Positions 1 through 52,599 of a stretch of DNA of 64,000 nucleotides are shown here, piece by piece (position 1 is the first letter of the stretch; each line of letters starts with the position of its first letter). The position numbers were made by a program, and so were the translations under genes. This DNA is from Raillietiella orientalis (lineage: Eukaryota), in NCBI GenBank assembly GCA_036172245.1, contig JAYWIR010000101.1, forward strand, positions 1-64,000, written 5' to 3'. The notes under the pieces were generated by a model. It worked only from the letters and a program-made list of their open reading frames with translations, was not told the DNA's origin and searched no databases.

Positions 1-3000
1 GCTTGAAAGTTCGTTTCCGGGGGTCGGTTGTATTGGCGATGCGGCGCCCGCAACACCTGTGGGGTCGCGTTTTCCGTGAAGCCGGCCATTGACGCTGCCG
101 TGAAGGGCGTACGCTTCGATGACGACGGTCGGGTCGGTCAGCTGATTCTCAGCTGGTCCGACTCGATCGAATTGATCGTCACGAACGTGTACGCCTCAAG
201 CGGGAATGGGGGATACAGCGACCGTACCAGGTTGCTGGAAACCCTGAAGCGCGACTGGCTGGCCGATACGAACGTGCGGAAGGCACACCTGATAGCTGGG
301 GACTTTAATCTCCGTCTGCTGTCAGGTGAGCCCGAAGCACAAGAACGCACGGCCAACGAGTTGTGCGCTGCCATGCGCACGCGCAACTTGTTGGCGGACG
401 CGGAGGGAATGGACCGCAGCATCGACCACTTCTTCCTGGATGTCGAACTGTGCTCGCGGGTCGGCAAACGGGGAGAAGTTGCGTCGACGCTGTCGGACCA
501 TTCCAGGTTAATCGCCGAGGTATGCCCGCGCGATAAAGGACCCCCGGCCAAGGCGTGGCGGTTGCCTGGGGACTGGACGCGGCTCTCAGGAGCGAAGGAA
601 CACCTTCGCGAATTCCTGAGAGGCGTCACCCTCCGCAGTCTCAAAGATTGGGACCTTTTCAAGGCCTCGGTCCGCGAGTTCTGCGAGGAGTTCCCCCTGC
701 ACCGCCTGCCCCCCGGATTTGGGGAGGGGGTTTGGAACCATAGGGCCTATTTACAGGCCCGCCGGCACGAGAGAACCCCCAATGTCCGTCGCCTGGCCGA
801 ATATCGAGCCGGGGCCGAGCGCCAAGCCTGGCAATCCGGGTCGGCCAGCTTGCTGGACGACCAGGGCCGGGAGCGATCGGCCCCACCCGCGATCAGGCAC
901 CTCGTGCGGCAGTATTATTCCTCCCTCTACGCTAGGGTACCCCCAGAGCGGGACGCCTCGCGGCTCCTGCTTCCGGACGGAGGCCAGGCAATAGGGGAGG
1001 AGGAGAGGATCAGCCTCGACGAGCCTTTTTCTACCGGTGAAATTCTCGCCGGTATTAAAAGGCTTAAGAGGCGTAAGGCGCAAGGGGAGGACGGACTGCC
1101 TGCGGAATTTTTTCAATGCTTCGCGACAGAGCTGGCCCCCCTGGTGCTCCAGTTGACCGGGCTGATCCGAGACGAAGGCGACGTTCCTGCCTCGTTTCGG
1201 TCAGCCCGTGTGAGGCTCCTCCCGAAGGGAGGAGACCTGAGATCCCTAGGCAACTGGCGTCCGATCACAATTGTGAATACGGACGCCAAGCTGATCGCTG
1301 GACTGTGGGCTTCGCGTCTAGGACAGGTGGCAGACTCCATAATTAGCCCGGAGCAGACATACGCTGTTACCGGGCGAAGTATGGATGCCAACCTGTTCTT
1401 CGCGAGCACATGGTTCCATGTGCAGAGCTGCCTGAATGAAACTGGCGGAAAGATTGGCAACCCCACTTTGGGGCCGCCAGCTGGGCTGGGAATGGACACC
1501 CGGGCTGGGAAAGGGGCCCTAGCGATCGCGGTCGATCTCCATAAGGCGTTCGACTGCGTTGACCAGGAGCTACTGTTGGCGCTCCTGGGTCGCATGGGCT
1601 TCCCACCCTCCCTTCTCTCCTTCCTGCGCTCCTGCTGGCGCAACGCCATAATTAACATCTGCTTTTCCAGTCAACAGGTGTACGGCGTGCCGGTGCGGCG
1701 GGGCATACGGCAGGGCGATAGCCTCAGTCCCCTGCTCTTTAGCACCTACTTTGAGTTGGTGCTGAGAGCGTACAGGGTGACTTTGGCTGCCCTGCCCAGC
1801 TCGTGCCCCGGCACGCCCGCCGTAGCAGCATACGCGGACGACCTTCTGCTCATGTTGCCCATGTCCGCCCCGGCAGCCGCAGTCGAGGATTTCTTCGACC
1901 TGCTAAGTCGTGGGACTGGACTGCGTGTAAACAAGGCGAAGTCGTCGGTCGTACCGGTGGGTGCGACGTGGGTCGGACGGCCTGACTGGATCCGCTTGGG
2001 GATCATCACGGCCAGGTACCTGAAGTACCTGGGTGTCCCGTTGGAGGACTTCTGCCTCGCAGAAGCCTGGTCAGGTCGTCTCCAGAAGGTAGAGTTGGCA
2101 ATCGGACCGTTCCTGGAAGGCAAGTTCCTTCTGCCGGAACGGGCCGCGGTGTGGAGCGCCTTCGCGGCTCCCATCCTCCGCCCCCTGCTTTTTGTGTGCC
2201 CCGTCCCCCGTGACATTAAAAAGAGGACAAAAGACCTACTCCGCATCGCCCTCTGGGACAGCGGGAGGCCACGTGTGCCTCTGGATGATTTATGCACTCC
2301 TCGTCGGGACGGCGGTCTCGGCCTCCTGCCGCTGGAGCGCCTGAAAATACAGCTGCGATGGCGCACCCTCGCCATCGCAGCAAAGACATGCAGCACCCCT
2401 TGGTGCGCTCCGGCCCGAATCCTCGCCAGCCGTGTGTCCAGGACGCAAGGACTCGCGTCGTACCTTCTGTGCTCCGGCAGGAAGGTGAGAAGATGCGGCC
2501 TTCTTCTTGGGCGCATGGAAGCCCTGGTCAGAGACAACGGCTGGACGGTATGCAGCCCCGCCAACTCCTCCGCCTGGCTGGAGGAAACAGTTGCGACGTG
2601 GGCCAAGCTGAACCTCCAGACTTCCCCGGACTGGAACCGCCTGCGATTCGGCCCCAACGCCCGCTGCACACTGCGGACTACTCTGGAGTGTCCCGCCAGG
2701 AGCACGTGGGCGGAGACCACCCCTCTAGCTTCGACCCTGCCCTTCCTCCGGAGGGCTTTAACCAGCGGCCGCAAGCCAAAGTGGCAAGTCTCCTGCCGAA
2801 TCGCAGGCAAGGAGAAGAAGATGAGCGGTTGGACCATGGGAGAACTGGCGGATGCCACAACCCCGAGTGCTCTCCCTCGTGGACTCCGTAGATGGGGCGA
2901 GGTGCTCGGCATCCCGACGGATGACCTGAAGTGGCCCCCAATATTAATCGGATCCAGACTTCTCCCCCTTAAGTGGCAAGAGTCGGCGATGCTGCTGTTG

Positions 3001-3659
3001 CACTGGGGCCTAACCTGCAACGCGCGCCGCTTCCACTGAACGCGGGGAAGTGTAAGGCCTGAGTGTGCCAGGTGTGGGGACCGGGAATTGCTCCCCCACC
3101 TACTTGTTGACTGTGCTGCCCTCCGACCCCTGTGGGAACGGTTCGGGACGACCCTCGGGCTTAATACGGGCAGCGCGCCCAGAGACGTTCTTCGGCCCCT
3201 CTTCGTGCGGGACGCCTTGCAGCCCGCCGCAGCCCTCGCAGTCCTCTGCTGCATCCGGGGCATCGTGGCGGCCTGGAGCGACATTCGCGACGAAGGAGTG
3301 GATGCCAACGCAAGGGATGTCATCCCGTATACGGTCTGCTTCATGCGGAGAGCTGCGAGATGGCCCCATCTGGGAAGCATGAAGATGGACCTGGAGGGCA
3401 TCCTGCGAAGGATGGGCCCTCCTCCCAGTGGATTGTGATCCCTTCCTCTCCCTCCAAACTCTTTTTTTTTTTTTGTTTTCCTTATGTTTATTTTTCTTTT
3501 TGTTTTGATCCCTATCCCCCTCCACTGCCGAGGAGCGTCACGCCGGGCTGCGTCCCGGCGTCCCGGCAGATCCGGTGTTGTGTGGCCGTTAGTGGAACCT
3601 CGTACCACGTTTTTGCAGAGTTTTTTTCAATAAACGCCCAGGCGTACCCGGGTGACAAC
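1..3659 (+). mobile_element. El1: Tx1/L1-clade non-LTR retrotransposon (5' part outside window), ORF2 + 3' UTR
   Basis: APE motifs (NVYA, GDFN, IDH, SDH); RT motifs (GEDGLPAEFF, NWRPITIVN, KAFD, QGDSLSP, YADD, YLG); C-terminal C..C/H..C; T-rich 3' UTR; AATAAA at 3629; ends GGTGACAAC at 3659. Confidence 0.93.
28..3438 (+). pseudogene. ORF2 (APE-RT-Zn finger) of El1 with one premature stop
   Basis: ORFs 28..3039 and 3088..3438 are in frame. The TGA at 3037-3039 replaces the Trp of the HWTRG motif seen in paralogues. Confidence 0.9.
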
Positions 3660-4303
3660 CCCAAATCCCGCAGGTAGGCGATGCAGGGGGAACTGGAAGC
3701 AGAACTCCTGGACCGACCGCTTGAAGCGGTCCCAGTCCTGAAGTGTCTGCATCCTGAAGCTACGAATAAACGCGCGGAGGTGCTCCGCCGCGTCAAGAAA
3801 CTTCAGCCAGTCCCCTGGCAGACACCACGCTGACGAGGTGGGGCCCTTGTCGCGCGAACGCACTTCGAACATGATCCGACCATGGTCCGACAGCTCGGAT
3901 GGTACCTTGCCGCGCCTGCCCACCCGAGAGCATAGGTGCTGATCAAGGTACACGTGATCGATGCTGCTTTCCATGGCCGTGTCCCCGGCCAACAAGTTGC
4001 GCGTGTTCATTTCTGCGCACAACTCGTTGACGCGGTCGTTCAGTGTATCCGGCGCACCTGAAAGCAGGCGTAGGTTGAAATCACCTGCGATCAGGTGCGC
4101 TTTGCGAACTCCTGCATCGGTCAGCCAATCGCGTCTCAGGGCAAAGTAGAACTTCCTTCTTGCCTTCGCCCTCAACGCGGCGTTTCCGCTAGGAGCGTAT
4201 AGGTTGGTGACGACCAGGTCGATAGAGTCGGACCAGCTGAGAGTCAGCTGACCGACGCGACCTGCGTCAACGAACCGAACGTCCTTTATTGCGGTCTCGA
4301 TGG
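3660..4303 (-). mobile_element. X1: APE-domain fragment of a related element; host of the El1 3' end
   Basis: ORF 3627..4382(-) contains VGQLTLSWSDSIDLVVTNLYAP...GDFN...IDH...SDH...WDRFK. Confidence 0.85.
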
Positions 4304-4964
4304 CGGTGGGAAGGCAAACAAAAAGCAAGGGGCGGAGGATGGAGGCCGCTAAGGCGTTCCAAACCGCGTCCCGTTCCGGCAAGTGAAACTTTCCTTTCAG
4401 GAACGGGCCGATCGCCGTCTCGCCTTTTTGGAGGCAGCTGGACCACGCTTCCGCAGGGAACTAGTTACCCAACGGCACACCAAGGTACTTGAAGCACCTC
4501 GCCGTGGAAATCCCCAGTCCTGCTGCCCTGCCCACGCTGCACCTATTGGCACCAAAGACGACTTTGCCCTCTTAACCTGCAGTCCGGTCCCGCGGCTGAG
4601 CAGATCGGAAAAGTCACCCTGTACGCTCTTGCCGGGGTGGACATTGGCAACAAGAGCAGCAGATCGTCGGCGTACGCTGCTACGGCGAGCGTGCCGGGGC
4701 ACGAGCTCGGCAATGAAGCCAAAGTCCCCCTGTACGCTCTCAGCACCAACTCAAAGTAGGTGCTGAAGAGCAGGGGGCTGAGGCTATCTCCCTGCCTTAT
4801 GCCCCGCCACACCGGCACGCCATACACCTTGTGACCGCTGAAAGAGACGGTAATCATCGCATTCCGCCACCAAGAGCGCAGGTAGGAAATCAAAGAGGTT
4901 GGGAAGCCCAGGCGACCCAGAAGCTTCAAGAGGAGTTCCTGGTCTACACAGTCGAACGCCTTGC
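4304..4964 (-). mobile_element. X2: RT-domain fragment (KAFD to LLFVC); host of the A 5' end
   Basis: KAFDCVDQ...QGDSLSP...YADD on the minus strand; very similar to 17060-17720(+), including a shared frameshift. Confidence 0.85.
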
Positions 4965-5059
4965 GTGCTCCAGGGTGGACGTGTTTTCTCGGTGCTCCTC
5001 GTGCCAGGAAGTCTCCCCCAGTGCAAGAGTCGTGTGGTTCGGTGGTCGATCAGGCAGCG

Positions 5060-6709
5060 ATGCCTGACGCGACCACCAGGGATGGCCAGGGGGCAGCGGC
5101 AACGCCGTCCCCAGAGGCGATGGAGAGCCAGGGGGCGGCGGCAACGTCGCCCATAGAGGCGATGGAGGTGGGGGCATCCGCCCCCACAGAATCAATCCCC
5201 GCCTCAGCGCGGGCGTAAAGCGCCGTTGTGTCGGCGCCATCGCCTGCACCCGCGGCGGAATTGTCGGCCTATGTAGAAGAGGGGTACAACCCCTCATTGT
5301 TCTACAAGGTAGGCAATGTATATTCTTTAGAGAGCGCGCGCGCCTTCTCGAAAGGCATGCGCGCTCTCGATGTGAAAGAGGAGGAGCTCAGCGCTATGAC
5401 CATCCGCAGCGGGGGTCAGTACGTTGAGGTCATTTGCAATCATGCAGAGCTGGCCCAACGACTGCTTAGAACCCCCGTTGTGATGGGGACGCGCAGGCTC
5501 CTCCCCACTACGGCGGACCGCATAATGGTGGTCCACCTGTTAGGCGTAATTGCGCGAATGCGCAAAGAACAGGTTCGCGCCGCTTTGGAACAGTTCGGAA
5601 CGGTCCACGCGCAGTAAACGAAAGTAAGTCCTTTCGAGGACTACACGGGGCTGCAACACGGCCTCAGTGCTGCGCGCGTGACCGTTCGGGAGGGCTGCAC
5701 TCTTCCCCACAAACTGGTGGTCGAAGGCGAAACTGTCGACCTCTGGTATGTGGGAAAACCGAAATACTGTGGCTTCTGCAATACGTCGGGCCACCTCAAA
5801 AAGAGGTGTCCCAACGTGCAGTGCCAAGTATGCGGAACCATGGGACACACGAGAGAGGTGTGCCCTAAAGCGGCAGTGCGGGTGGTTTCCAAGAGAAACC
5901 TTAAAAAACGTGCCCGGCATCTGAAGAAAAGGCTGGCGGCGAAAGCTGCCGCGAAGGGTGTGCCACCCGCGCCCAAGGCCCAGGCCGCACCCGAGACCCC
6001 GGCGAACAATGCCGAACAAATCGAGGGAAGAAGCCAGGAGCCTGGGTGGCAGGTGGCTACGGCCAAAAAATCAAAGAAGGAGAGGAGGATGGAGAAAAAG
6101 CTCGCGTATCGCCAGAAAAAACAGCAGGCAAGCGAGCAAATTAAAGAATGCAGCGTTGTCGTCGGGCGTATTCCCGACCGCTGCGAAAAAGAACTCGCCA
6201 CAACCGACGACCACCCCTCTGTTGACTCTGTCAACAGCGAGGGGAGCGAGCCGGCGGCGGCGTCCGTCATCGACACCACCATCGATGACGTAGCCTTCGC
6301 GCGAGCCGCGGAGGAGCTGGCAGCCTCGTTGCAGCCAGAACCCTCCAAGGCTGGCAAGAAGGCCGTAAGGCGCCCGGCCTCCCCTCAGGAGTTCCCCACT
6401 TCCGACCCTGAGGTGGAGGCCGGAATTGCAGCCTCCGTTTCCACGGCACCGCGCAAGAAGGCTGGACGTAAGTCCACAAAGCCAAGGAAGCTCGTCTCCC
6501 CCGTCGAAGAAGAAGAGATGGCTTCCGCAAGCGAGGGTGCCATGAGCGTGGGAAACTCTCGGGACCCGTCGCCCGAGAGACTCCCACGCGCGGACACGGA
6601 GGGGATGGAGGGAATGGAGGCCGAACAGGTGCCTCAGGTGCCTGAGAAGGCCGAAACCCCCATGGACATCCCGCCCGCCTCGCAAGAGGCGGGCTCCCCC
6701 ACACCTTAA
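5060..6709 (+). pseudogene. ORF1 (gag-like, two CCHC knuckles) of A with two premature stops
   Basis: Contains YVGKPKYCGFCNTSGHLKKRC and CQVCGTMGHTREVC. TAA at 5216 and 5615 correspond to Trp in the intact paralogue 44894..46714(-). Confidence 0.88.
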
Positions 6710-6723
6710 TCTTCCCAGCAGTA

Positions 6724-8185
6724 ATGCCGGGAATCTCCTCCCGCCGTCGTCTGCGCATCGCCGTTTGGAACGTGAACGGCATGACAGACTCCGGCAGGAG
6801 ACGAGACATGGCCGCCCTTCTGGAGTCCTACGACCTTGCGCTGCTGCAGGAGATCCACGTGATCTCTGCAGAACAAGCGCAAGACATCGAACGGATCTCC
6901 GGAGGGCGGCTATGGTACAGGTGTGGGAGAGCGAAAAGTTGCGGTGTCGCCTACCTGCTTCGGCCAGCCGTCGAGACCGCGGCTCGGGGCGTGCGGTTAG
7001 ACGATCACGGTCGTGTCGGCCAGCTGACTCTAAGGTGGTCATACTCGATCGATCTGATCGTGACGAACGTGTACGCACCGAGCGGCGCGGACCTGATGAC
7101 CAGGAGGCCGAGGAAAGAGTTTTTCCTTGCCCTCCGGCGAGACTGGCTGACCGAAGCAGGCGTGCGGAATGCGCATCTGGTTGCAGGCGATTTCAACGTT
7201 CGCCTGAAACCAGATGGGCAGAATCGCGAGCGTGACCTGGTCAACGAGGTGTGCATGGCGGTGCACACCTGTAATTTGTTAGCCAGTGCACCAGGGATGG
7301 AAGACAGCATTGACCACGAGTTTCTTGACGAGCACCTGTGGCCTCGCGTGGGCAGGCGTGGCAAGTTACCGTGCGAGCTGTCCGACCATCGCCCACTAGT
7401 CCTCGAGATCCATCCGCGCGACAGGGGCCCCCCCTCGTCAGCGTGGCGGCTCCCAGGAAACTGGCTGAAGCTCCCGGACGCGGCGGAACATCTCCGCACG
7501 TTCATACGGAGCTTCGGGCTGCGGACACTCCAGGATTGGGACCGCTTCAAGCGGTTGGTCCAGGAGTTCTGCGACCAGTTCCCTCTGCACTGTTTACCTA
7601 CGGGTTTTGGGACCGGGGTCCGTAACGAACGAGCCTACCTGCAGGCCCGTCGTTACGCCAGGACCCCCGACATCCGCAGGCTGGCGGAATACAAAGCGGG
7701 AGCCGAGAGGCAAGCCTGGCAGTCCGGATGGGCCAGCTTGCTGGACGACCAGGGCCGGGAGCACTCGGCTCCGGCTAGAATACGGCAATTCGTGCGGCGT
7801 TATTATTCCTCCCTTTACGCCAGGGCGCCTCCGGAGCAAGATGCCTCTCGGCGCTTGCTTCCGAGCGGTGCCCCGGCAATAGGGGATGAGGAGAAGGAAA
7901 GCCTTGACGAGCCTTTTACCATTGGCGAAGTTCTTGCCGGTATCAAAAGGCTCAAGAGGCGGAAAGCACCAGGGGAGGACGGCTTGCCCGCAGAGTTCTT
8001 CCAGTGCTTCGCGGAAGAGCTGGCCCCCCTGGTGCTTCAGTTGACCAGGCTGATCCGAGACGAAGGCGATGTTCCCGCCTCGTTTCGGTCAGCCAGAGTG
8101 AGGCTCCTTCCGAAAGGGGGAGACCTCAGGGAGTTAAAGAACTGGCGTCCAATCACGATCGTGAATACGGACGCCAAGTTGATAG
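6724..8185 (+). pseudogene. ORF2 N-terminal half of A (APE + early RT)
   Basis: MPGISS...WNVNG...LQEIH...GDFN...IDH...SDH...PGEDGLPAEFF...NWRPI; cut by the B insertion. Confidence 0.9.
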
Positions 8186-8398
8186 TTGCCACCCGGTAAC
8201 GCCGGGGAGTTTATTGAAAAATTCTCCATAATTGTGGTAGAAGGCCCCACTACGGCCAAGACAACTGATCCTGCCGGGTTGCCGATACGCAGATCGGCGG
8301 GACTCACCTCGGCAGCGGAAGGGGGTGGGGGGAAAAACAAAAAGAAAAATAAAACATAAAAAAAAAAAACAAAAAGATTTTGGTGGGCGGGGAAGGGA

Positions 8399-11300
8399 TC
8401 ACGGTCCACTGCGAGGAGAATCCATCCTTTCCAGGATGCCCTCCAGGTCCGTCCGTATTCTTCCCAGATGTGGCCATCTGGTCGCAATCCGCAGGTAGCG
8501 GACTGCAAGTTCGACGGCATCCCTTTCGTGGCTCGGTCTTCCGACGTCACTCCAGCACGTCACAATCCCACGGACGCAGCAAAGTGCAGCCAGGGCAGCG
8601 GCTGGTCGCAGGGCATCCTACACGAACAGAAGCCGAAAAACGTCTCTGGGCTGGCTGCCCTCCTGGATGCGTAGGGAGGCACGAAGACGTTCCCACAGGG
8701 GCCGGAGGGCAGCACAATCAATAAGGAGGTGGGGGAGGGTTTCCCGCTCTCCGCACCTGATGCACTCGGGATTCACTCGACCCCTGGTCCAGTGGTGGCG
8801 GCGTGCGTTGCAGGTGAGGCCCCGATGCAACAGCAGAAGTGCTGACTCCTGCCACTTCAGGGGGAGGATCCTCGATCCAATCAATACTGGGGGCCACTTC
8901 AGTTCATCCGTCTGGATGTCGAGCAGCTCGCCCCATCTCAGGAGTCCACGCGGAAGGACACTTCGGGTCGTGGCGTCAACCAGCTGCCCCGTGGTCCAAC
9001 CGCTCATTTGCTTCTCTTTGCCTGCGATACGGCAGGAGACTTGCCACCTAGGCTGGCGGCTGCTGGAGAGCGCCCTCCTCAGGAAGGGCAACGCCGTTGC
9101 TGTGGGGGTTGTCTCCGCCCACGTGCTTCTCGCGGGACACTGGAGTATCTTCCGGAGAGTGCAGCTTGAATAGGCGCCGCATCGCAGGCAGTTCCACATC
9201 TCTGAGTTCTGCTCTTTGATCTTCGCCCACGTGCCAGCGGTCTCCTCCAGCCATGCGGAGGAGTTGGCGGGGCTGCATTCCATCCAGCCGTTTTCCTTTG
9301 CCAGGGTTGCCATGCGTCCCAGGAGGAGTCCGCATCTCTTGATCTTCGAGCCGCGGCACAGAAGATGAGACGCGAGACCCTCCGTTCCGGATACACGGCT
9401 AACAAGGAGTCGGGCCGGAACGCACCATGGGGTGCTCCATAATTTCGCTGCGACGGCCAGGGTGCGCCATCGCAGCTGGATTTCTACTCTCTCCACCGTC
9501 AAGAGGCCCAGACCGCCATCCCGACGTGGAGCACACAAGTCCTTCAACTGGACTCGGAGCCTCCCTCTTCCCCAAAGGGGAATCCTCAGGAGGTCCTTCG
9601 TCCTTTTTTTCATGTCTCTGGGGACGGGGCAAACAAAAAGCAGGGGGCGAAGGATGGGAGCCGCAAAGGAGTTCCACACCGCGGCCCGTTCCGGAAGCAG
9701 GAAGTTGTCATCCAAGAACGGGCCGATCGCCGTTTCCACTTTTCGGAGGCAGCCGGACCACGCATCCGAAGGGGAGTAATCCCCCAACGGCACCCCGAGG
9801 TACTTCAAGCACCTCGCCGAGGGGATCCCCAAACGGACCCAGTCCTGCTGCCCAGCCCACGTCGCACCGAATGGCACCACCGACGACTTCGCCTTGTTAA
9901 CCTGCAGTCCGGTTCCGCGGTTAAGCAGGTGGAAGAAATCCTCGACTGCCTTTGCCGGGGTGGACATCGGCAACAAGAGCAGAAGATCGTCGGCGTACGC
10001 TGCTACGGCGGGCGTGCCGGGGCACGAGCTCGGCAAGGGGGCCAACGTCACCCTATACGCTCTCAGCACCAACTCAAAGTAGGTGCTAAAGAGCAGGGGA
10101 CTGAGGCTGTCGCCCTGCCGTATGCCCCGCCGTACCGGCACGCCGTACGCCATTTGACCTCTGAAAGAGATATTGATCAGCGCGCTGCGCCAGCAAGAGC
10201 GCAGGTAGGTCAGTAGGGAGGGAGGGAAGCCCATGCGTCCCAGGAGCTCCAGCAGGAGATCCTGGTCCACGCAGCCAAACGCTTTATGCAGATCGACTGC
10301 GATCGCTAGGGCTCCCTTCCCCACCTGGGAGTCCTGTCCCTGCCCGTCTGACACCCCCAAAGCGGGGCTGCCAATCCTTCCCTCTTCCTTTTCTTCACTA
10401 CTCTGCACATGAAACCATGTGCTCGCGAAGAAGAGGTTGGCCTCCATACTTCGCCCGGGAACAGCGTAATTCTGCTCCGGGCTAATTACGGAATTGGCCA
10501 CCTGCCCCAGACGCGAAGTCCACAGTCCGGCGATCAGCTTGGCGTCCGTGTTCACAATTGTGATCGGACGCCAGTTGCTGAGTTTCCTGAGGTCTCCTCC
10601 TTTCGGAAGGAGCCTCACTCTGGCTGACCGAAACGAGGCGGGTACATCGCCTTCATCTCGGATCAGCCTTGTCAACTCAAGCACCAGGGGTGCCAACTCT
10701 GCCGCGAAGCATTGAAAAAACTCCGCAGGCAGGCCGTCCTCCCCTGGTGCTTTCCGCCTCTTGAGCCTTTTGATACCGGCGAGAACTTCGCCGGTGGTAA
10801 AAGGCTCGTCGAGGCTTTCCTTCTCCTCCTCCCCTATTGCCGGGGCACCGCTCGGAAGCAAGCGCCGAGAGGCATCTTGGTCCGGGGGCGCCCTGGAGTA
10901 AAGGGAGAAATAATAACGCCGCACGAGGTGCCGTATTCTAGCCGGAGCCGAGTGCTCCCGGCCCTGGTCGTCCAGCAAGCTGGCCGATCCGGATTGCCAG
11001 GCTTGACGTTCGACCCCGGCTCGGTACTCTGCCAGGCGACGGACATTGGGGGTCCTCTCGTACCGGCGGGCCTGTAAATAGGCCCTATGGTTCCGAGCCC
11101 TCTCCCCAAATCCGGGGGGCAGGCGGTGCAGGGGGAACTCCTCGGAGAACTCGCGGACCGAGGCCTTGAAGAGGTCCCAATCTTTGCGACTGCGGAGGGT
11201 GACGCCTCTCAGGAATTCGCGAAGGTGTTCCTTCGCACCTGAGAGGCGCGTCCAGTCCCCAGGCAATCGCCACGCCCTGGACGAGGGTCCCTTGTCGCGC

Positions 11301-11785
11301 GGGCACACCTCGAATATCAATCTGGAATGGTCAGACAGTTCCGACGCAACTTTCCCCCGTTTGCCGACCCGCGAGCACAGGTCGACGTCCAGGAAAACGT
11401 GGTCGATGCTGCTGACCATTTCCGGGAGTTCCCCTAACAATTTGCGCGTGCGCATGGCAGCGCACAACTCGTTGGCCGTGCGTTCCTGTGTGCGTGGCTC
11501 ACCTGATAGCAGGCGGAGATTGAAGTCTCCCGCTATCAGGTGAGCCACGCGCACGTTCGCTTCCACCAGCCAGTCGTGCTTCAGGCTTTCCAGGAACGCC
11601 GCGCGTTCCCGGTACCTGTTATAACCGCTCGGGGCGTATACGTTTGTTACGACGAGGTCGATCGTGTCGGACCATCTGAGAATCAGCTGGCCGACACGAC
11701 CGGCTTCGTCGAAGCGCACGCCCTTCACGGCAGCGTCGACCGCCGGCTTCATGGAAAACGCGACGCCGCAGGTGTATCGGGTGCC
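8399..11785 (-). pseudogene. ORF2 of B (APE from TCGVAF onward, RT, Zn finger); N-terminus at 14456-14640
   Basis: ORF 8618..11995(-) contains all RT motifs and CIRCGERETLPHLLIDC. One late premature stop at 8618; the frame continues to TGA at 8399. Confidence 0.9.
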
Positions 11786-14455
11786 GCCAGGTGAGGATGG
11801 TCTGCCTGCGGAGTTCTTCCAGTGCTTCGCGGCGGAACTCATCCCCCTGGTGCTGAGGCTTTCTGCGCTGATGCGAGAGACGGGCAATGTCCCGGCCTCG
11901 TTTCGCTCAGCAAGGGTGCGTCTGTTGCCGAAAGGCGGAGACATGCGCCATTTAAGCAACTGGCGTCCCATCACTTTGGTGAATGCGGACGTCAAGTTGT
12001 TCTCCAGGCTGTGGGTCGCGCGCCTGGGCAGGATCGCTGGATCCGTCGTAAGTCCGGAGCAGTCTTACGCTGTTCCCGGGCGGTCCATGGAGGCGAACCT
12101 GTTCTTCGCGCGCACGTGGCTCGAGCTGCAACGCTGCGTGGCGCACGACAGCCAGGCAACCGCATCTGCGGCTGCCGAGGCTAGGCGTCGCTGCATTCGG
12201 CCCGGGGAATCGCCGGGTGCCTTGGCGGTCGCGGTCGATCTCCGCAAGGCGTTCGATTGCGTAAATCAGGATCTCCTGCTGGAGCTCCTGGAACGCATCG
12301 GTCTCCCGGTGCACCTCGTGGCGTATTTGCGCGCTTGCTGGCGCCACGCGCTCATTTCCATCTCTTTTAGCGGCTGCCACGTGTACGGCGTGCCGGTGCG
12401 GCGGGGCATCAGGTAGGGCGACAGCTTAAGCCCGTTGCTCTTCAGCATCTTCTTTGAGTTGGTGCTGAGGGCGTACAGGCTGACGCTGGCCAACCTACCG
12501 AGCTCTTGTCCAGCAACGCCGTCCGTGGCGGCCTATGCTGACGACCTGCTTCTCCTCTTACCCATGACCACCCCGGCGTCCAGTCTCGAGGATTTCTTCG
12601 AGCTGATTCCCCGAAGAGCGGCCATGAGCGTAAACCGGAGCAAGAGCGTGGTCGTACCTATTGGTGCGGCGTGGGAGGGGCAGTCCGACTGGATCCGCCT
12701 GGGGATCCCGACCGCTTCCTCCATGCATTATCTGGGCGTTCCGCTGGGGAACATCAGCCCAGTGGAAGTGTGGTCGGACTGCCTTCGGAAGGCTTCGAAT
12801 GCCCTGAGCCCGTTCCAGCATGGGAGGTTCGTCCTGCCGGAGCGGGCCACGATATGGAACACCTTCGTTGCCCCTCTCTTGCGCCCCCTGCTTTTTGTTT
12901 GCCCGTCCCCCTACTCGGCCAAGCTCCAGGCGCACAGCCTGTTGAGGAACGCTCTGTGGGGACCTGCGAGGTCCAGGATCCGCCTCAAAGACTTGGCGGC
13001 TCCGCGTCGGGATGCTGGCTTAGGCATCCTGACGCTGGAGAGAATCGAGCTGCAGGTGCAGCTTCGGATGTTGGCCCTGTGCGCCAACCTTTGGTCCACT
13101 CCGTGGTGCGCTCCCGCGCGCCTGCTTCTGCGGCGCTGCACAGGCAGCGATGGACTTCTGTCGCTACGGCCGCACACGGAGCGCGCCACGAGAAGCTTCG
13201 GTTTCCCCTTGAAACCGCTGTACGGGCTCCTGGAAGCCCAGGAATGGATCTCCTGCCGCCCAACGAACTTTGAAGCCTGGCGGCAGGAACCGTTGCATGG
13301 CTGGGCAAAGCACCAGGACGTTTCCCTCCTGGAACTCCGTTGCGCTCACCACTCCCCGTACTGCACGGTGGATGAGGTGTGCAACAGTCAGGAGAAGTGG
13401 ACCCGCCTGGCCGTCACCCCCCTCGCCGACGCACTGTCAGCCCTCAGGGCAAGAGATGACAGTTGCGAACTGGCGAGATGGGAGGTCGCCTGCACCATCG
13501 CAAGAACAACGCGACCTATTGGCGGCTGGAAGACTTGCGAGCTGAAGGACGCCGCCACACCTCGCCACGTTCCGAAGGGTGTCCTCCGGTGGAGCGAACA
13601 CTTGAGTGTGCCCCTTGAAGAACTTGTGGTTCCTCCCTCGTGTTTGAACACTTCTGTGTTCCCCCTTTCGTGGAAGCAGGACGTGATTATGCTGGTGCAT
13701 TGGGGTTTTCACTCCAACCAGCGCACGAACCTTGTTTCCGGGGGAGTTGTCTCCCCAAACTGCAAGCAATGCGGGGAAGTGGAAACGCTCCCGCACCTGC
13801 TGCTTGAGTGCGGTGCCCTTCTAGGACTGTGGCGAAGGCTGGCCTCAGCTCTCCTGCACCAGGGGGACACCGCGAGGGTCTTGATGCGCCGCTTCTTCAC
13901 GCCAGGCGGCCTGTCATTGGGTGCTGTCGTTGCAACCGTGTGTTGCACCCGCGCCATCGACAAGGCCCACCGAGAGTTGGAGAAGCTGGCCATTTTTCGT
14001 CAGCCCACCGGATTAGCCAGCGCAAACATGTCGTCGGCTGCCCAGTGGGCCCATCTGCCACAGGGCGTAAGAAGAGAGATCGCCGGCATCCATCGCCGGT
14101 TTTGAAAGGAAGGAACGGACTAACCAAAGACCCCTGTCCCCTGCCCTCCATATTTTTCTTTTATTTTTTTATATAGTAGTGTGTTTGTGGTCCCTTCCCT
14201 CCCGTTCCGGACTTTCGGCATACCGACCTGCGTGTCGGGGATCCCACCCCCTTCGTCTCTTGTTCTCCCCTTTGTCCGGGAACCCTGTTCCCGGATAGTT
14301 TATAATAAATGCCCCGGCGCACCCGGGTGGGACTTTCGGCATACCGACCTGCGTGTCGGGGATCCCACCCCCTTCGTCTCTTGTTCTCCCCTTTGTCCGG
14401 GAACCCTGTTCCCGGATAGTTTATAATAAATGCCCCGGCGCACCCGGGTGACAAC
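11786..14455 (+). mobile_element. Element C, 5'-truncated, antisense within the APE of B
   Basis: Starts at PGEDGLPAEFF; ORF2 runs to 14105 with a premature TAG at 12414-12416; ends AATAAATGCCCCGGCGCACCCGGGTGACAAC. The host reading GGRL|...GTRYTCG is split around it. Confidence 0.92.
14209..14450 (+). repeat. Perfect 121-bp tandem duplication of the 3' terminus of C
   Basis: 14209-14329 and 14330-14450 are identical by reading. Confidence 0.92.
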
Positions 14456-14643
14456 CAGCCGCCCCCCTGCGATCCTCTCAATCTCCTGGGCGTTATCCCC
14501 GGTGATCACGTGGATCTCCTGCAGGAGTGCCAGGTCGAAGTCACTCAGGGTGGCTGCCGTGTCCCGTCTGTTGCTGTCGTCGCGCAGCCCGTGGACGTTC
14601 CAAGATGCCACACGCAATCGACGGTGACAGGCGAGCCCAGGTG

Positions 14644-16713
14644 TTATTCCCGGGAAAGTGGCAATGGGGCTCCCGCCACCTGGTCGGGCGGGACGGATGG
14701 AGGCATGGGGTCACCGCCCAGCGGTTCTCCCGCCTCCACGGGGGCCGATTCCTCGGCGGACCGTAACGGTTGAAGGGAGCATGCTTCACGAACCTGATTC
14801 CCCTCTTCCATGGGGGCCGATTCCTCGACTGCGTTGGACGGCAGGGGGGAGCGGTTCTCAGCTGTCTGCTCCCCCTCTTCCATGACAATCTTCTCCGCAG
14901 GCTCCACCGGTGGAAGGGGAAGGCAATGCCCTACCTGCTCCCCCTCCTCCATGGGGGTGGCCGGCTGCTCGGTGGCGGAGGGTGGGAAAATTCCTCCCTC
15001 TGTTCCCACGCTGCCGGCTTCCCCCTCGGCTGCCGGTGCGTCCCCCTCGCTCTTCGTCGGGATGGGCCTCTTGGGATTCTTGGACTTCCGTCCAGTCTTC
15101 TTCGGAGGCGCCTCCGTGGAAGAGGACGCACTTCAGGCATCCGGGTCGTGGTCACCTGTCGGAGGTGCCCTGGTCGCGGCCGGCCTTCGCAAGGCGTTTC
15201 GCGCCCCGTTCTCACGGTCGGCGAGTTCGGCCGCGAGCTCTTCCGCCGCCTGCTGGAAGGCGGCTTCGTCGATCGCGGCGAGCGCGTCGCGCGGTTCTCC
15301 CTCTGTTTGCACAGACGGTTCGCCTTCCGTGATCGCGTTATCGTAGGCGTCGACGCGGGGGATATCTCCCCCGGTGGCGGTCTCGGGTACCTCCACACGC
15401 TCCAAAGCGACCGAACATTCGCGGATCAACGCGCGGCGTTGTCTCCTATTCAAAGGAGACGTCGCGGGTTCCGCTGTCGACCCTTTGGTTTTCTTAATTT
15501 TCTTGGCTTTAGGCTTCGCCTTCTGCCAGCCTTCGCTCTTTTCAGCGTCTTCGGTAGATTCCACGACCGGCGTTTGCTGCACGGGCTCGTGCTCCGGCTG
15601 TGGGTTCCGTCTCACGGGTGCCTTCGCAGGCTTTTCCGTAGCCCCCGCGCGTTTCCCTTTGGCCTTTTTCAAGGCAGCGGGAGCCGGGGGTTCGCGCTTC
15701 GGGCACACTTTGCGGAGGTGGCCCTTCTCTCCACAGTGGAAACACTGGATGTGAGGGCATCGCTTTTTCAGGTGCCCTGTGGCATCACAGTGTCCACAGT
15801 ACTTGGGCTTGCCCACGTACCAGACGTCGACGGTCTCGTTGCCGACGTCTAGTTTGTGGGGTAGCCCACCGTTTTCGTGGACGGTTACACGCGCACCAGC
15901 CATGCCACTAAACAGTCTTCCGTAACTCTGGAAGACGTTGGGCTTCGTCCATAGCGCGTGAACCGTTCCGTATTTTCCGAGTTCCTCCTGCACGTCGGAT
16001 TTCGACATGCGGAGGGTGACTCCCGTGAGGTGCGTCACCACGGAGCAATCCTCCGTTACCGGGAAAACCTTTCGGCCTTCCAGTGTGATTGGCGTATTCA
16101 GGAGGTGTTGAGCAAGGCTTGCATTTCTGCAAGTCACCTCCACCCGTTGACCACCACTCAACACGGAAAGACCTTCCAGGTCTTCCTCTTTTACATTCAA
16201 CCGCTGCAACTCCCTTTCGAAGTTGCGAGCGGTGTTCCCGATAAACAGATTGCCTACCTTGTATATCAGGGACGGCTTGTATCCCTGCTCCAGGTAGGCT
16301 TTCTGCTCGACGAGGGCTGCAGGAGATGGGGCTGCAGCCACTGAACTCCAGGTCTTCGGCGATGCCGAAGACGCATTCCAGGGTGCAGGTGCCCCCTTTT
16401 TCAAGGAGGCGGTTGCGCCCTTTTCCAGGGTTGCGGTTGTCCCCTTTTTCAAGGGGGCGGTTGCACCCTGTTCCAGCGTGGCTTTTGCCCCCTTTTTCAA
16501 GGGGGCGGTTGCACCCTGTTCCAGCGTGGCTTTTGCCCCCTTTTACAAGGGGGCCTTTGCCCTCACTTCCGAGGCGGCGGTTGCCCCCTTTTTCAGGGGT
16601 GCGGCTGCCGTCGCCTCCGTGGGGGCGGTTGCCCCCACCTCCGTGGGTTGGGGAGAGTAGCAGGCCTCTCCCCCTCCTATATCCATCGCGGTGTCCTCAG
16701 GCATTTCTGCCAT
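14644..16713 (-). pseudogene. ORF1 of B (CCHC knuckles, N-terminal 8-aa repeats) with two premature stops
   Basis: In-frame ORFs 16543..16746, 15133..16500 and 14644..15009; contains YCGHCDATGHLKKRC and CFHCGEKGHLRKVC. Confidence 0.87.
16380..16640 (-). repeat. 24-bp coding minisatellite in B ORF1
   Basis: Repeated GGTTGC(A/C)CC...TTTTTCAAGGGGGC units encoding ATAPLKKG / AKATLEQG-like octapeptides. Confidence 0.8.
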
Positions 16714-16801
16714 TGGACACCGCAGATGCTTCACACACAAACACAATCGAAATCAACCGCTTTACACCAGGCGCGGAGGAGCGCTACAAAAAAACGTCCT
16801 C

Positions 16802-19159
16802 ACGCCAAGTTGATAGCAGGGCTATAGGCTTCGCGACTGGGGCAGGTGGCGGAATCCGTAATTAGCCCGGAGCAGACTTATGCTGTTCCCGGGCGAAGTA
16901 TGGATGCTAACCTCTTCTTCGCAAGCACATGGGTGCACCTGCAGAGAAGAGAGAAGAAAGGGATAGGGAAAGTCAGCAACCCCACATTAGGGCCGCCAGC
17001 TAGGCTAAGAAGGGACCCCCGGGCGGTGAAGGAGACCCAAGCACTCGCAGTCGATCTCCACAAGGCGTTCGACTGTGTAGACCAGGAACTACTCTTGGAG
17101 CTCCTGTGTCGCATGGGCTTCCCACCCTCACTGATTTCCTACCTGCGCTCTTCCTGGCGGAATGCGATGATTACCGTCTCTTTCAGCGGTCACAAGGTGT
17201 ATGGCGTGCCGGTGCGGCGGGGCATAAGGCAGGGAGATAGCCTGAGTCTCCTGCTCTTCATTACCTACTTTGAGTTGGTGCTGAGAGCGTACAGGGTGAC
17301 TTTGGCCCCCTTGCCGAGCTCGTGCCCCGGCACGACCGCTGTAGCAGCGTACGCCGACGATCTTCTGCTCTTGTTGCCAATGTCCACCCCGGAAAGAGCG
17401 TACAGGGTGACTTTTCCGATCTGCTCAGCCGCGGGACCGGACTGCAGGTTAAGAGGGCAAAGTCGTCTTTGGTGCCAATAGGTGCAGCGTGGGCAGGGCA
17501 GCAGGACTGGGGATTTCCACGGCGAGGTGCTTCAAGTACCTTGGTGTGCCGTCGGGGGAATACTTCCCTGCGGAAGCGTGGTCCAGCTGCCTCCAAAAAG
17601 TCGAGACGGCGATCGGCCCGTTCCTGGAAGGAAAGTTTCACTTGCCGGAACGGGACGCGGTTTTGAACGCCTTAGCGGCCTCCATCCTCCGCCCCTTGCT
17701 TTTTGTTTGCCTTCCCACCGTGGAATGAAAGAAAAGGACAAAGGACCTCCTGTGTATCGCTTTTTGGGGCAAGAGGAGTCCCCTAGTTCCTCTGAAGGAC
17801 TTGTGCGCTCCGCGTCGGGACGGCGGTCTTGGCCTCCTGACGCTGGAGTGCGTGGAAAAGCAGCTGCGGTGGCGAACCCTCGCTATCGCAGCGAAGATGT
17901 GGAGCACCCCTTGGTGAACTCCGGCCCGCCTCCTGGCCAGCCATGTGTGCCGGTGCGATGGACTCGCGTCTTTTCTTATGAGCCGTGGCCGGTAGATGCG
18001 AAGATGCGGCCTACTGCTCGATCGCATGGCAACATTGGCCAAGGAGAACAGCTGGATGGTTTGCTGCCCCGCCAACTCCCCCGCCTGGCTGGAGGAGAAT
18101 ATTGGAACGAGGGCATTGGTTAACCAGAAGAGCCACGAAACGTGGAATCGTCTCCGATGCAGCCCCTATGCCCGCTGCAGGCTGCGCCATCTCCTGGAGA
18201 ATCCAGCAAGATGCCCGTGGGCAGAGACGACCTCCCTAGCTACGGCGCTGCCCTTCCTGAGGAGGGCACTTCACAGCAGCCGGACGCCAAGGTGCCAAGT
18301 CTCCTGCTGCATCGAGGGACGGGAGAAGTTGATTAGCGGATGGACAACAGGAGAACTGGCCGACGCCACGACCCCGAGCGTCCAGCCTCGAGGATTAGCA
18401 AGATGGGTCGAGCTGCTCGCAATCCCCAGGGATGAGCTGAAGTGGCCCCCGGTGATGAAAGAATACAGGATCCTTCCCCTCAAGTGGCAAGTGTCGGCGT
18501 TGCTCCTGTTGCACTGGGGTCTACCCTGCAACGCGCGCCTCTTCCACTGGACGAGGGGAGTGGTAGATCCTGCGTGTGCCAGGTGCGGGGAGCGGGATTC
18601 GCTACCCCACCTTATTGTGGATTGTGCTGCCCTTCGACCACTGTGGGAACGGTTCGGGACGACCCTCGGGCTTAATACGGGCAGCACCCTTAGAGACGTT
18701 CTTCGGCCCTTCTTCGTGAAGGACGCACTGCAGCCAGCCGCAGCCATCGCAGCCTTGTGCTGCGTCCGTGGCATCGTGGCGGCATGAAGCGACGCCAACA
18801 ACGAAGAAGTGGGTCCACACGCGAGGTATGTCATCCCATAGGCCCAACGCTTCTTGCGGAGAGCTGCCGGATGGCGCCAACTTGGGAATATGCAGACAAA
18901 CTTGGAGGGCTTCCTTCGACGGATGGGCCCTCCTCACAGCGACCAGTGTTGCCTTCCCTGCCCTCTAACTTCTTTTTGTTTGTTTCTTTTTTATTTTTCT
19001 TTTTGTATTTCTCCCCTCATCCCCTTTCGCTGTCGGGGAGTGCCACGCCGGGCTGCGTCCCGGTGTCCCGACAGGTCCTGTGTTAACGGCCGTGGTGGAG
19101 CCTCGTGCCAAGCATGTAGAATTTACAAATAAACGCCCCGGGCGTACGCGGGTGATAAC
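16802..19159 (+). mobile_element. Element A, 3' part (RT, Zn finger, 3' UTR), frameshifted
   Basis: Resumes at the TSD with AKLIAGL; KAFD, YADD, CARCGERDSLPH; AATAAA at 19128; ends GGTGATAAC. Confidence 0.9.
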
Positions 19160-20330: not shown

Positions 20331-23300
20331 GCACACCAAGGGGTGCTCCACAGCTTGAATGCGATAGCGAAGGTTCGCCATCGCAGCTGAATTTCCATGC
20401 ACTCCAGCGTCAGGAGACCTAGACCACCATCACGACGAGGAGCGCAAAAGTCCTTTAAGCGGACACGAGCCCTCCCGTTGCCCCAAAGGGCGATACAAAG
20501 AAGGTCCTTTGTCCGCTTTTTAATTCTCTCTGTGGGGGGGCAACCCAAAAGCAGGGGGCGGAGGAGAGGAGCCGCCAACGTGTTCCAAACCGCGGCCCGT
20601 TCAGGCAGAACAAAACTGCCGCCTCGGAACGGGCCGATCGCCGTCTCTACTTTTTGGAGGCAGCTGGACAACGCTTCCGCAGGGGAGTAGTCCCCCAACA
20701 GCACACCAAGGTACTTAAAGTACCTCAGCGTAAGGATCCCCAAAGGGACCCAGTCCTGCTGTCCTGCCTACGCCGCACCTACTGGCACCACCGACGACTT
20801 CGCCCTGTTGACCTGCAATCCGGTCCCACGGCTGAGCAGATCGAAGAAGTCTCCGACCGCCTTCGCCGGGGTGGACATTGGCAACAAGAGCAGAATATCG
20901 TAGGCGTACGCTGCTACGGCGGGCGTGCCGGGGCACGAGCTCGGCAAGGGGGCCAAAGTCACCCTGTATGCTCTCAGCACCAACTCAAAGTAGGTACTGA
21001 AGAGCAAGGGGCTCAGTCTGTCTCCCTGCCGGATCCCACGCCGCATTTGCACGTTGTGCACTGTCTGCCCGCTGAAAGAAACGTTGATGAGCGCGTCGCG
21101 CCAGCAGGAGCGCAGATAGGCCACTAATGAGGCCAAGAAGCCCAAGCGTTCCAGAAGGTTTAGAAGGAGATTCCGGTCGACGCAATCGAATGCTTTGCGC
21201 AAGTCGACTGCGACCGTAAGGGCTCCCTCTATCACCCGACCATCCGACCTCTTGCCGGCGCACGCACCGGAATTCCCGCTGCGCAGCAAGCTCCTTTCTT
21301 GTTAAAGCTCTAGCCAGGTGGAAGCGTGGAACAGGTTCGTCTCCATGCTCCGCCCGGGAACAGAATATATCTGTTCCAGGCTGATATAGATGTTGACAAC
21401 CCATCCCAGATGCTCTGCCAAAACCTTCGCTAGCAACTTGGCGTAAGCATTCACTATTGTGATGGGACGCTAGTTCATGCTCCTCAGATCTCCTCCCTTA
21501 GGAAGGAGCCGCACCTTTGCCGAACGAAACAAGGCGGGAACGTCACCTGTTTCTCGTATCAGCAAGGTGAGTTGCTGTACCAGGGAGGTAAGCTCAGCCG
21601 CGAAAGTTTGGTAAAACTCCGCGGGCAGGCGGTCCTCCCCAGGAGCCTTGAGCCTCTTGAGCTTTCCGATGGCCGAGAGGATCTCGTCCATCGTGAAAGG
21701 CTCGTCGAAGGTATTTCTCTGCTCTTCCCCGATCGCTGGAGCGCCTTTCGGAAGCAGGAGTCATGAGACGCTCCTCTCCGGAGGTTCCCTGGCATACAGG
21801 AAGGAGTAGTAACTCCGCAGCAGGCCGCGGATATGGGCAGGTGCCGAGTGCTCCTGGCCATGATCGTCCAGCAAGCAAGCCGATCCGGATTGCCAGGCTT
21901 GCCTCTCGGCTCCCGCTTTGTATTCCGCCAGCCTGCGGATGTCGGGGGTACTGGCGTAACGACGGGCCTGCAAGTAGGCTCGTTCGTTACGGACCCCGGT
22001 CCCAAAACCCGTAGGTAGGCGGTGCAGAGGGAACTGGTCGCAGAACTCCTGGACCGACCGCTTGAAGCGGTCCAAATCCTGGAGTGTCCGCAGCCCGAAG
22101 CTCCGTATGAACGTGCGGAGATGTTCCGCTGCGTCCGGGAAATTTAGCCAGTCCCCAGGGAGACGCGATGCTGACAAGGGGGGGCCCCTGTCGCGCGGAT
22201 GGATCTCGAGGACTAGCGGGCGTTGGTCTGACAGCTCGCAGGGTAACTTGCCGCGCCTGCCCACGCGAGGCCACAGGTGCTCGTCAAGAAACACGTGGTC
22301 AATGCTGTCTTGCATCCCCGGTTCACTGGCCAACAAATTACAGGTGTGCACCGCCATGCACACCTCGTTGACCAGGTCACGCTCGGGATTCTGCCCATCT
22401 GGTTTCAGGCGAACGTTGAAATCGCCTGCAACCAGATGGGCATTCCGCACGCCTGCTTCGGCCAGCCAGTCTCGCCGGAGGTCAAGTGAAATCTCTTTTC
22501 TCGCCCTCCTGTTCATCAGGTCCACGCTGCTCGGTGGGTACACGTTCGTGACGATCAGATCGACCGAGTCGGACCACCTGAGAGTCAGCTGGCCGAGACG
22601 ACCGTGATCGCCGAACCGCACGCCCCGAGCCGCGGCCTCGACGGCTGGCCGAAGCAGGTAGGCGACACCGCAACTTTTCGCTCTCCCACACCTGTACCAT
22701 AGCCGCCCTCCGGAGATCCGTTCGATCTCTTGCGCTTGTTCTGCAGAGATCACGTGGATCTCCTGCAGCAGCGCAAGGTCGTAGGACTCCAGAAGGGCGG
22801 CCATGTCTCGTCTCCTGCCGGCGTCTGTCATGCCGTTCACGTTCCAAACGGCGATGCGCAGACGACGGCGGGAGGAGATTCCCGGCATTACTGCTGGGAA
22901 GATTAAGGTGTGGGGGAGAGCTCCTGTTGCGAGGCGGGCGGGATGTCCATGGGGGTTTCGGCCTTCTCAGGCACCTGAGGCACCTGTTCGGCCTCCACCC
23001 CCTCCATCCCCTCCGTGTCCGCTCGTGGGAGTCTCTCGGGCGACGGGTCCCGAGAGTTTCCCACGCTCATGGCACCCTCGCTTGCGGAAGCCATCTCTTC
23101 CCCTTCGACGGGGGAGACGAGCTTCCTTGGCTTTGTGGACTTACGTCCAGCCTTCTTGCGCGGTGCCGTGGAAACGGAGGCTGCAATTCCGGCCTCCACC
23201 TCAGGGTCGGAAGTGGGGAACTCCTGAGGGGAGGCCGGGCGCCTTACGGCCTTCTTGCCAGCCTTGGAGGGTTCTGGCTGCAACGAGGCTGCCAGCTTCT

Positions 23301-23455
23301 CCGCGGCTCGCGCGAAGGCTACGTCATCGATGGTGGTGTCGATGACGGACGCCGCCGCCGGCTCGCTCCCCTCGCTGTTGACAGAGTCAACAGAGGGGTG
23401 GTCGTCGGTAGCGGCGAGTTCTTTCGCAGCGGTCGAGAATACGGTCCACGACAAC
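20331..23455 (-). mobile_element. Element F (A/J family): ORF1 C-terminus, APE, RT; 3' end lost; interrupted by G
   Basis: ORF 21761..22888(-) MPGISS... is nearly identical to A/J; RT fragments continue to LWSTPWC. Confidence 0.9.
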
Positions 23456-35534: not shown

Positions 35535-35547
35535 GTCTTCCCCTTTT

Positions 35548-51890: not shown

Positions 51891-52039
51891 AACCAAAAGC
51901 TGAAGAATAGTTGCATTTTTCGGTATATTTCAGCGAATGCGTTCATAGTTAGCATAGAAAAATGCAGGAGAAGTTCACACCTGTTCATCGCATCTTTAGT
52001 TGAAGCACACGGAAATTGGAAACAACGCCATGATTCGTT

Positions 52040-52560: not shown

Positions 52561-52599
52561 TCGATGGTTCAGCTATCTTGGGAAAACAATAAATAAAAA

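Follow-up and report, generated by a model that had tools for sequence, protein, structure and literature searches.

Positions 1 to 64,000 of contig JAYWIR010000101.1 from Raillietiella orientalis, referred to below as the window (64 kb of eukaryotic DNA), form a nested pile of copies of L1-like retrotransposons without long terminal repeats (non-LTR), whose endonuclease (EN) domains are short in one particular segment. In all nine copies covering this segment, 39-43 residues separate the Asp of the GD(F/L)N motif from the Asp of the xDH motif, compared to 60 in the EN of human L1. The best explanation, which we consider probable, is that the ancestor of a clade of L1-like elements lost strand betaB6 together with the hairpin loop, with the EN still acting as the nickase of target-primed reverse transcription (TPRT) without a minor-groove probe.

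According to this explanation, a common ancestor would have lost approximately 17-21 EN residues between the equivalents of L1 D145 and D205. The lost stretch, of the form 'hP...(Y/F)T(W/F)...', would comprise betaB6, the anchor residue Thr192 and the hairpin loop that protrudes between betaB6 and betaB5, plus a few residues of the loop following the DxN motif, while the remaining two-sheet core and the catalytic residues would have been kept. The enzyme would still make the first-strand nick of TPRT, using an open cleft that lacks the minor-groove probe, and target choice would come from elsewhere or be loose. We infer that the hairpin-less EN is catalytically active and that its target recognition has been loosened or relocated.

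Spacing and predicted structure of the short endonucleases

Long open reading frames (ORFs) in the window show the Pfam domain order Exo_endo_phos, RVT_1 and a weak zf-RVT match, which places the EN N-terminal to the reverse transcriptase (RT) in ORF2; upstream ORFs (ORF1) carry a CCHC zinc knuckle. The Exo_endo_phos profile (PF03372, cut-off 24.5 bits) scores 59.2 bits in the ORF of the divergent family D, 43.5 in the c6721 ORF and 25.9 in the ORF at 8618-12064, while the El1 ORF, which is cut by the window edge, stays under the cut-off with 19.3 bits. A search of all six frames by tblastn and by profile yielded nine EN copies that cover the segment from GDxN to xDH and one additional N-terminal fragment, and no EN of normal length or with a normal hairpin in the window. 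The copies are the following.

13-573, plus strand: El1 EN domain without its N-terminal third, which lies beyond the window edge; ORF2 runs on into the RT
298-429, plus strand: El1 segment from the start of GDFN (Asp codon 301-303) to the end of IDH (Asp codon 424-426), spacing 41
3810-4346, minus strand: EN fragment (c4346), spacing 41
6721-7461, plus strand: c6721 EN, complete and stop-free, with N, E, Y, GDFN, IDH and SDH; Asp codons 7189-7191 and 7312-7314 (spacing 41); folded as model 1
11255-11872, minus strand: EN copy c11872, spacing 41; the C-terminal two thirds of the E8618 EN take up 11255-11782
14456-14647, minus strand: N-terminal piece of the E8618 EN (WNVHG, LLQE), parted from the rest by the nested insertion 11787-14454
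22151-22891, minus strand: c6721-family EN copy, spacing 41, SDQ for SDH
25377-26039, plus strand: degenerate EN copy interrupted by stops; spacing 43; IDH replaced by PDN
32051-32791, minus strand: stop-containing EN copy from a further family; spacing 43; SDQ for SDH
35548-36252, plus strand: family D EN, complete and divergent; spacing 39 (Asp codons 35995-35997 and 36112-36114); folded as model 2
44169-44882, minus strand: c6721-family EN copy, spacing 41, SDQ for SDH

Six copies thus have a spacing of 41 residues, two have 43, and D has 39. A first-pass annotation of this DNA had given 41 for El1 and 39 for D, with coordinates that are exact, and had described the other families as similarly short, which holds for 9/9 copies. 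Its figure of 60 for L1 was recovered from an HMMER alignment to PDB 1vyb_A, in which GDLN of D falls on L1 residues 144-147 and 'ashkpIDH' on L1 199-206. For a spacing of 41 and for D, the shortfall relative to L1 is 19-21 residues, in line with the approximately 20 residues claimed before. In the c6721 EN, residue 186 pairs with L1 177 and the IDH Asp is residue 198, so that 16 residues are missing within L1 178-204. The distance from this Asp to SDH is 24 in all nine copies, the same as in L1 (205 to 229) and in the majority of the database rows listed.

That the short spacing is an artefact of decayed pseudogene copies or of misalignment is improbable in the extreme. Several copies are indeed fragments or contain stops, but the stop-free ENs (c6721, D and E8618) are equally short, and the register is fixed by the invariant GDxN, IDH and SDH motifs and by the constant distance to SDH. 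Moreover, the deletion is common to the whole clade and the short spacing is shared by window families that are only approximately 26% identical.

c6721, D and E8618 (over its two pieces) carry equivalents of all of L1 N14, E43, Y115, D145, N147, D205, D229 and H230; for El1, the N and E motifs fall outside the window. The earlier statement that the catalytic motifs are retained is therefore correct for the intact copies, but does not extend to the copy at 25377-26039, with its PDN, nor to three of the nine copies (22151-22891, 44169-44882 and 32051-32791, belonging to two families), in which a change from CAT to CAA turns SDH into SDQ and the H230 equivalent into Gln. This SDQ could be a transmitted subfamily trait, a recurrent mutation or the product of gene conversion. 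Both c6721-family copies that carry it lie within a 3.07-kb direct repeat of 93% identity (20386-23455 and 42376-45448) and may represent one segmental duplication, not two separate insertions.

In the L1 EN, the hairpin loop (residues 193-202) is held between the anchors T192 and S202 (PMC1950540, PMC8565326). As described in the sections of the structural report cited here, P197 and H198 of this loop enter and widen the minor groove in L1 EN-DNA crystal structures, S202 binds the +2 phosphate, and the hairpin loop and the loop 117-120 enclose the cleft that holds the cut strand (PMC8565326). Replacing the loop by three glycines (variant L3G) or by the two-residue-shorter loop of R1Bm (variant LR1) left little nicking, abolished the preference for supercoiled DNA and altered the nicking pattern, in the experiments cited from PMC1950540.

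AlphaFold2 models were built from a 59-row alignment for the c6721 EN (model 1; predicted local distance difference test score (pLDDT) 88.5, predicted template modelling score (pTM) 0.88) and for the D EN (model 2; pLDDT 90.4, pTM 0.89). Model 1 is predicted to pass from a helix (168-182) through a two-residue bridge and a short loop with one helical turn into the strand 198-203 (DHEFLD). Model 2 continues from a helix (163-176) into a strand of four residues (178-181, LVWR), then a seven-residue loop and the strand 189-194. The protruding two-stranded hairpin is absent from both predicted models. The top Foldseek match is the human L1 EN structure 1vyb (E ~4e-16), and VIA-align superposes c6721 on it with a Z of 23.6 and a root-mean-square deviation (rmsd) of 2.8 over 212/236 L1 residues, and D with a Z of 24.6 and an rmsd of 2.5 over 208/236, leaving approximately 24-28 L1 residues without a partner. 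The models suggest that the two-sheet, L1-EN-like (EEP) core is kept and the hairpin gone. Structure prediction and comparison with the L1 EN had been named in the first-pass annotation as a check that a normal hairpin could overturn; neither model has a normal hairpin.

Human L1 ORF2p EN (PDB 1vyb, 7n8s) is alike in being the best match in sequence and structure, in fold, in catalytic residues, in its place ahead of the RT and in the target-site duplications (TSDs) of the elements. It differs in its spacing of 60 and its hairpin, whereas the window ENs, with 39-43, have neither the T192-bearing strand nor a protruding loop; identity is approximately 20-22%.

Comparison with database endonucleases and ancestry

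To place the short spacing among known enzymes, a profile was built from canonical homologues and every fetched protein was aligned to it, the sample being the database proteins nearest to the queries. From the 163 rows aligned, 112 have Asp in both columns; 104 of these are database rows, with spacings of 45-76, mostly 60-65. In a second sample, consisting of relatives of the D ORF2, 42 of the 48 rows were usable and the spacing is 45-101. Altogether, none of the 146 surveyed database LINE (long interspersed nuclear element) ENs has a spacing of 44 or less (range 45-101). The idea that related families might commonly share the short spacing, raised beforehand as a possible refutation, thus finds no example among them.

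The missing part can be located more closely in these alignments. The T192 column holds Thr or Ser in 141/146 database ENs (100/104 and 41/42 in the two samples); in the main window families it holds no residue, and in D the aligner places T182, which follows LVWR, in this column. At the S202 equivalent, three residues before the IDH Asp, Ser occurs only in c4346 and c11872, with Asp, Gln, Arg or Lys elsewhere. From the helix end to D205, the in-register window rows have 11-12 residues compared to mostly 26-30 in database rows, while the loop directly following DxN has 28-29 residues compared to mostly 33-36, so that approximately one fourth of the missing length falls there. When aligned with 52 database homologues, the window ENs lack the block 'D(V/I)WR..hP....(Y/F)T(W/F)......', which precedes 'S(R/K)(I/L)D' in the others; D retains 'LVWR' and continues directly with 'TASHKPIDH'. 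The original placement of the loss at the hairpin is supported: about three quarters of it falls in the stretch from where helix alphaB2 stops to D205 (betaB6 and the hairpin loop), and the rest in the loop after DxN. The control spacings N-E (27), E-Y (74) and Y-D (32-39) fall within the database ranges. Because these remaining inter-motif spacings are ordinary, the anomaly is confined to one segment.

Known ENs vary in the same element to a lesser extent. In R1Bm, Tx1L, TRAS1 and plant RTE, the hairpin differs between clades and these differences have been linked to nicking behaviour: it is two residues shorter in R1Bm and has a longer tip in Tx1L (PMC1950540), and it is two residues shorter in plant RTE (PMC6007223). 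In the parts of these reports cited here, the variation in R1Bm, Tx1L and plant RTE is thus of the order of two residues, whereas the window ENs are without the whole element. The nearest experimental analogues are the engineered L3G and LR1 variants of the L1 EN, in which the same loop is lacking or shortened. However, these variants are man-made, keep betaB6 and T192 and are nearly inactive in the published account cited (PMC1950540), while the window form is natural, has lost both strand and loop, and belongs to families that have multiplied. The shortest D-to-D spacing among the surveyed database ENs (45-52) is found in CR1/Jockey-type ENs (Pfam Exo_endo_phos_2). Unlike the window ENs, these keep the hairpin strand with its Thr ('PT(F/Y/R)...S.IDL') and are short elsewhere in the segment. 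A fungal 'DNase I-like' protein (P0083, spacing 47) is the nearest partial look-alike and was set aside, as its context is unrelated.

Close relatives were searched for in several collections. An exhaustive representative search gave 124 matches, only one of which was below 1e-10, a 106-aa fragment. The ORF2 search found one RT-only fragment with 67% identity and none thereafter above 29%, and El1 ORF2 residues 85-175 as query gave no match at E 0.05 or better. A metagenome scan gave 23 loci, all with an identity of at most 32%; two of these (L014 and L019) matched past the GDFN motif, and L019 was rejected as a commonplace ExoIII-like gene whose hairpin is complete. The ESM Atlas contained generic EEP clusters only. 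No report of a LINE EN without a hairpin was found in open-access papers and preprints. The kind of enzyme is well known, while its complete natural loss of the hairpin in a diversified, apparently mobile clade is new as far as databases and literature show.

By the grouping of their RT, the window elements belong with L1-like ORF2 (the L1/Tx1 superclade) and not with CR1/Jockey-like elements: the window rows lie inside the L1-like ingroup, which is split from 10 CR1-like rows with a Shimodaira-Hasegawa-like approximate likelihood ratio test (SH-aLRT) value of 100, and from 3 CR1-like rows with 98. Among named relatives, L1-like ORF2s of vertebrates and plants come closest, at 22-33% identity. 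Within the RT-plus-EN tree, D and the main families form one clade with SH-aLRT 100 (LG+G4, 63 rows), a join that was flagged as a meeting of long branches, and with SH-aLRT 99 under a C20 mixture (24 rows), where no such flag was raised. Both also carry the less common states N-E = 27 and E-Y = 74. Because D and the main families form one clade, the simplest and likely reading is a single ancestral deletion, followed by long diversification (D is approximately 26% identical to the other families).

Purifying selection is seen in the ratio of nonsynonymous to synonymous substitution rates (dN/dS), roughly 0.16-0.42 for 25 comparisons of one main family with another; comparisons involving D carry no information. 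The ORF2 of E8618 is open for 1051 codons and that of D contains a single TAG.

Insertion, target choice and enzyme activity

Three elements of the window are needed to follow the insertions.

33480-39201, plus strand: D element, full length, with a zinc knuckle in ORF1, ORF2 at 35548-39066 and one TAG at 37573-37575; perfect 16-bp TSD at 33464-33479 and 39202-39217
8186-16801, minus strand: E8618 element, full length, holding the nested element 11787-14454; 15-bp TSD at 8171-8185 and 16802-16816
11787-14454, plus strand: 5'-truncated element nested inside E8618

In the D element, the perfect 16-bp direct repeat begins exactly at the 3' end. E8618 is flanked by a 15-bp repeat, and two paralogous copies of its host element carry the 15-mer once, within an uninterrupted RT coding sequence, and so represent the empty site. 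We calculate that chance would produce an exact 15- or 16-mer within 9 kb, at the offsets tested, less than approximately once per thousand trials. TSDs of 15-16 bp are the product expected from staggered nicks in duplex DNA. Together, selection, long open ORFs and the 15- and 16-bp TSDs speak for an EN that functions in normal target-primed insertion. Neither the nested element 11787-14454 nor the remaining six 3' ends showed a clean duplication. An apparent 216-bp overlap at the 8185/11787 junction was rejected as a duplication, since its flanks belong to different elements.

The first-pass annotation had suggested a single-stranded DNA or R-loop substrate for the enzyme. A preference for single-stranded DNA, bubbles or R-loops would be compatible with the absence of a minor-groove probe, and nothing beyond this absence favours it. 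The two full-length insertions with ordinary TSDs fit staggered nicks in duplex DNA instead, and one of the two mapped targets, that of E8618, is ordinary coding sequence of another LINE. The suggestion gains no support here, and such a preference is very improbable.

A different explanation is that the EN is weak or dispensable, and that the elements spread by EN-independent priming at breaks or ends, or with a borrowed EN, and pile up in a LINE-rich region. This would agree with the nested LINE cluster that makes up the window, with the SDQ motif in 3/9 copies of two families, and with the low activity of the L3G and short LR1 variants of L1 EN, which are barely active in the experiments cited above (PMC1950540). 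However, families that are approximately 26% identical have all retained the catalytic N, E, Y, D, N, D, D and H, dN/dS is well below 1 across families, and the clean 15- and 16-bp duplications on the two full-length insertions are typical of staggered EN nicks. Besides, the search of the window found no hairpin-bearing EN able to help in trans. A weak or dispensable EN is for these reasons regarded as unlikely.

Alternatively, the role of the hairpin may have moved to another part of the protein, i.e., the basic stretch following YAPS or a downstream ORF2 domain, with target recognition kept. The distance from Y to GDFN is indeed 37-39 residues in the main families compared to a database mode of 30-34, and this stretch contains RRPRK-like residues; in the L1 EN, the DNA cleft is walled on the opposite side by the loop following Y115, according to the structural description cited (PMC8565326). 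D, in contrast, is likewise without a hairpin, yet has an ordinary Y-D spacing (32) and no basic stretch. Moreover, no shared sequence was found among eight different 3' flanks or the two mapped target sites. This sample, which is what stands here behind the lack of a target consensus put forward in the first-pass annotation, is far too small for a claim about a consensus. Such a transfer seems unlikely, slightly less likely than a weak EN but more likely than the single-stranded DNA preference.

The ancestral loss of betaB6 and the hairpin loop, with the EN retained as TPRT nickase, is therefore preferred, with several observations weighing against it. The absence of the hairpin in three dimensions comes from predicted models only. 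Gln replaces the catalytic His in three of the nine copies, in two different families. The dN/dS ratios are rough, with dS saturated for many pairs, and D takes no supported position in the tree once the main families are left out. The apparent uniqueness of the deletion, drawn from sequence comparison, refers to nearest database neighbours and not to a labelled set of LINE clades. Finally, by analogy with L3G, a hairpin-less EN could be weak.

Element architecture and significance

The elements are arranged in nests. A three-level nest spans 4315-19158: the c6721 element (4315-8185 plus 16817-19158) is split by E8618 (8186-16801, minus strand), which is itself split within its EN by the plus-strand element 11787-14454, with an apparent loss of approximately 18 nt of EN sequence. 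Just past the E8618 junction, the c6721 element shows a change from TGG to TAG. An inverted RT fragment adjoins the 5' end of both c6721-family copies (4313-4962 and 46640-47296), and the RT fragment at 4304-4963 is 95% identical to the RT of the c6721 element itself (17061-17720). These inverted fragments may reflect 5' inversion, resembling twin priming, or a shared rearrangement.

The main-family 3' ends have no poly(A). They share a conserved AATAAA, a short CCCGG...CCGGG stem-loop and the sequence GGGTG(A/G)(C/T)AA, beyond which the flanks differ.

3627-3658, 14423-14454, 19126-19158 and 48576-48607, plus strand: main-family 3' ends
8186-8217, 26364-26394, 28970-28998 and 41083-41112, minus strand: main-family 3' ends

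The 3' end of family D differs and reads ...CCCCACCCCTTGTGGGACTTGGGGAAAC. Three tandem repeats lie within the elements. The one at 14209-14450 is a perfect 121-bp duplication (2.0 copies, 100% identity) of an element 3' untranslated region including the terminal stem-loop motif, the one at 16376-16647, near the 5' end of E8618, is a GC-rich, partly palindromic 24/48-bp repeat, and the one at 33827-34011 is a 27/48-bp repeat within the coding region of D ORF1.

The GC content is 55-62% across the first 48 kb and 46-53% beyond. In this lower-GC end (47955-64000), LINE pieces persist, and the six-frame search detected no EN there.

47955-48572, 50143-50637 and 62280-63047: zf-RVT-like C-termini
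48583-49455 and 63645-63998: ORF1-like frames
50005-51237: 5'-truncated D-family copy

Work on the ENs of L1, TRAS1 and R1Bm treats the betaB6-betaB5 hairpin as a common DNA-reading element, and engineered deletions cripple the L1 EN. A natural clade without the hairpin, which apparently inserts with normal TSDs, offers a direct way to test the purpose of the hairpin, which may be activity, the reading of DNA structure or specificity, and it allows one to ask what compensates for its loss. It also calls for caution in annotation pipelines that score the intactness of an EN by its length or by the spacing of its motifs. More tentatively, and with rather less confidence than in the ancestral loss itself, these families might show by a natural example that TPRT can do without the beta-hairpin, which counts as a hallmark of LINE ENs and is required for the activity of the human L1 EN. 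A whole clade of LINEs would then have relied over a long period on a minimal, probe-less nickase that acts on accessible or distorted DNA with little or no read-out of sequence or groove, and targeting would proceed via other parts of ORF2p, the 3' stem-loop of the RNA or the chromatin context. If this were true, the clade would offer a ready-made minimal scaffold for studying and re-engineering LINE targeting.

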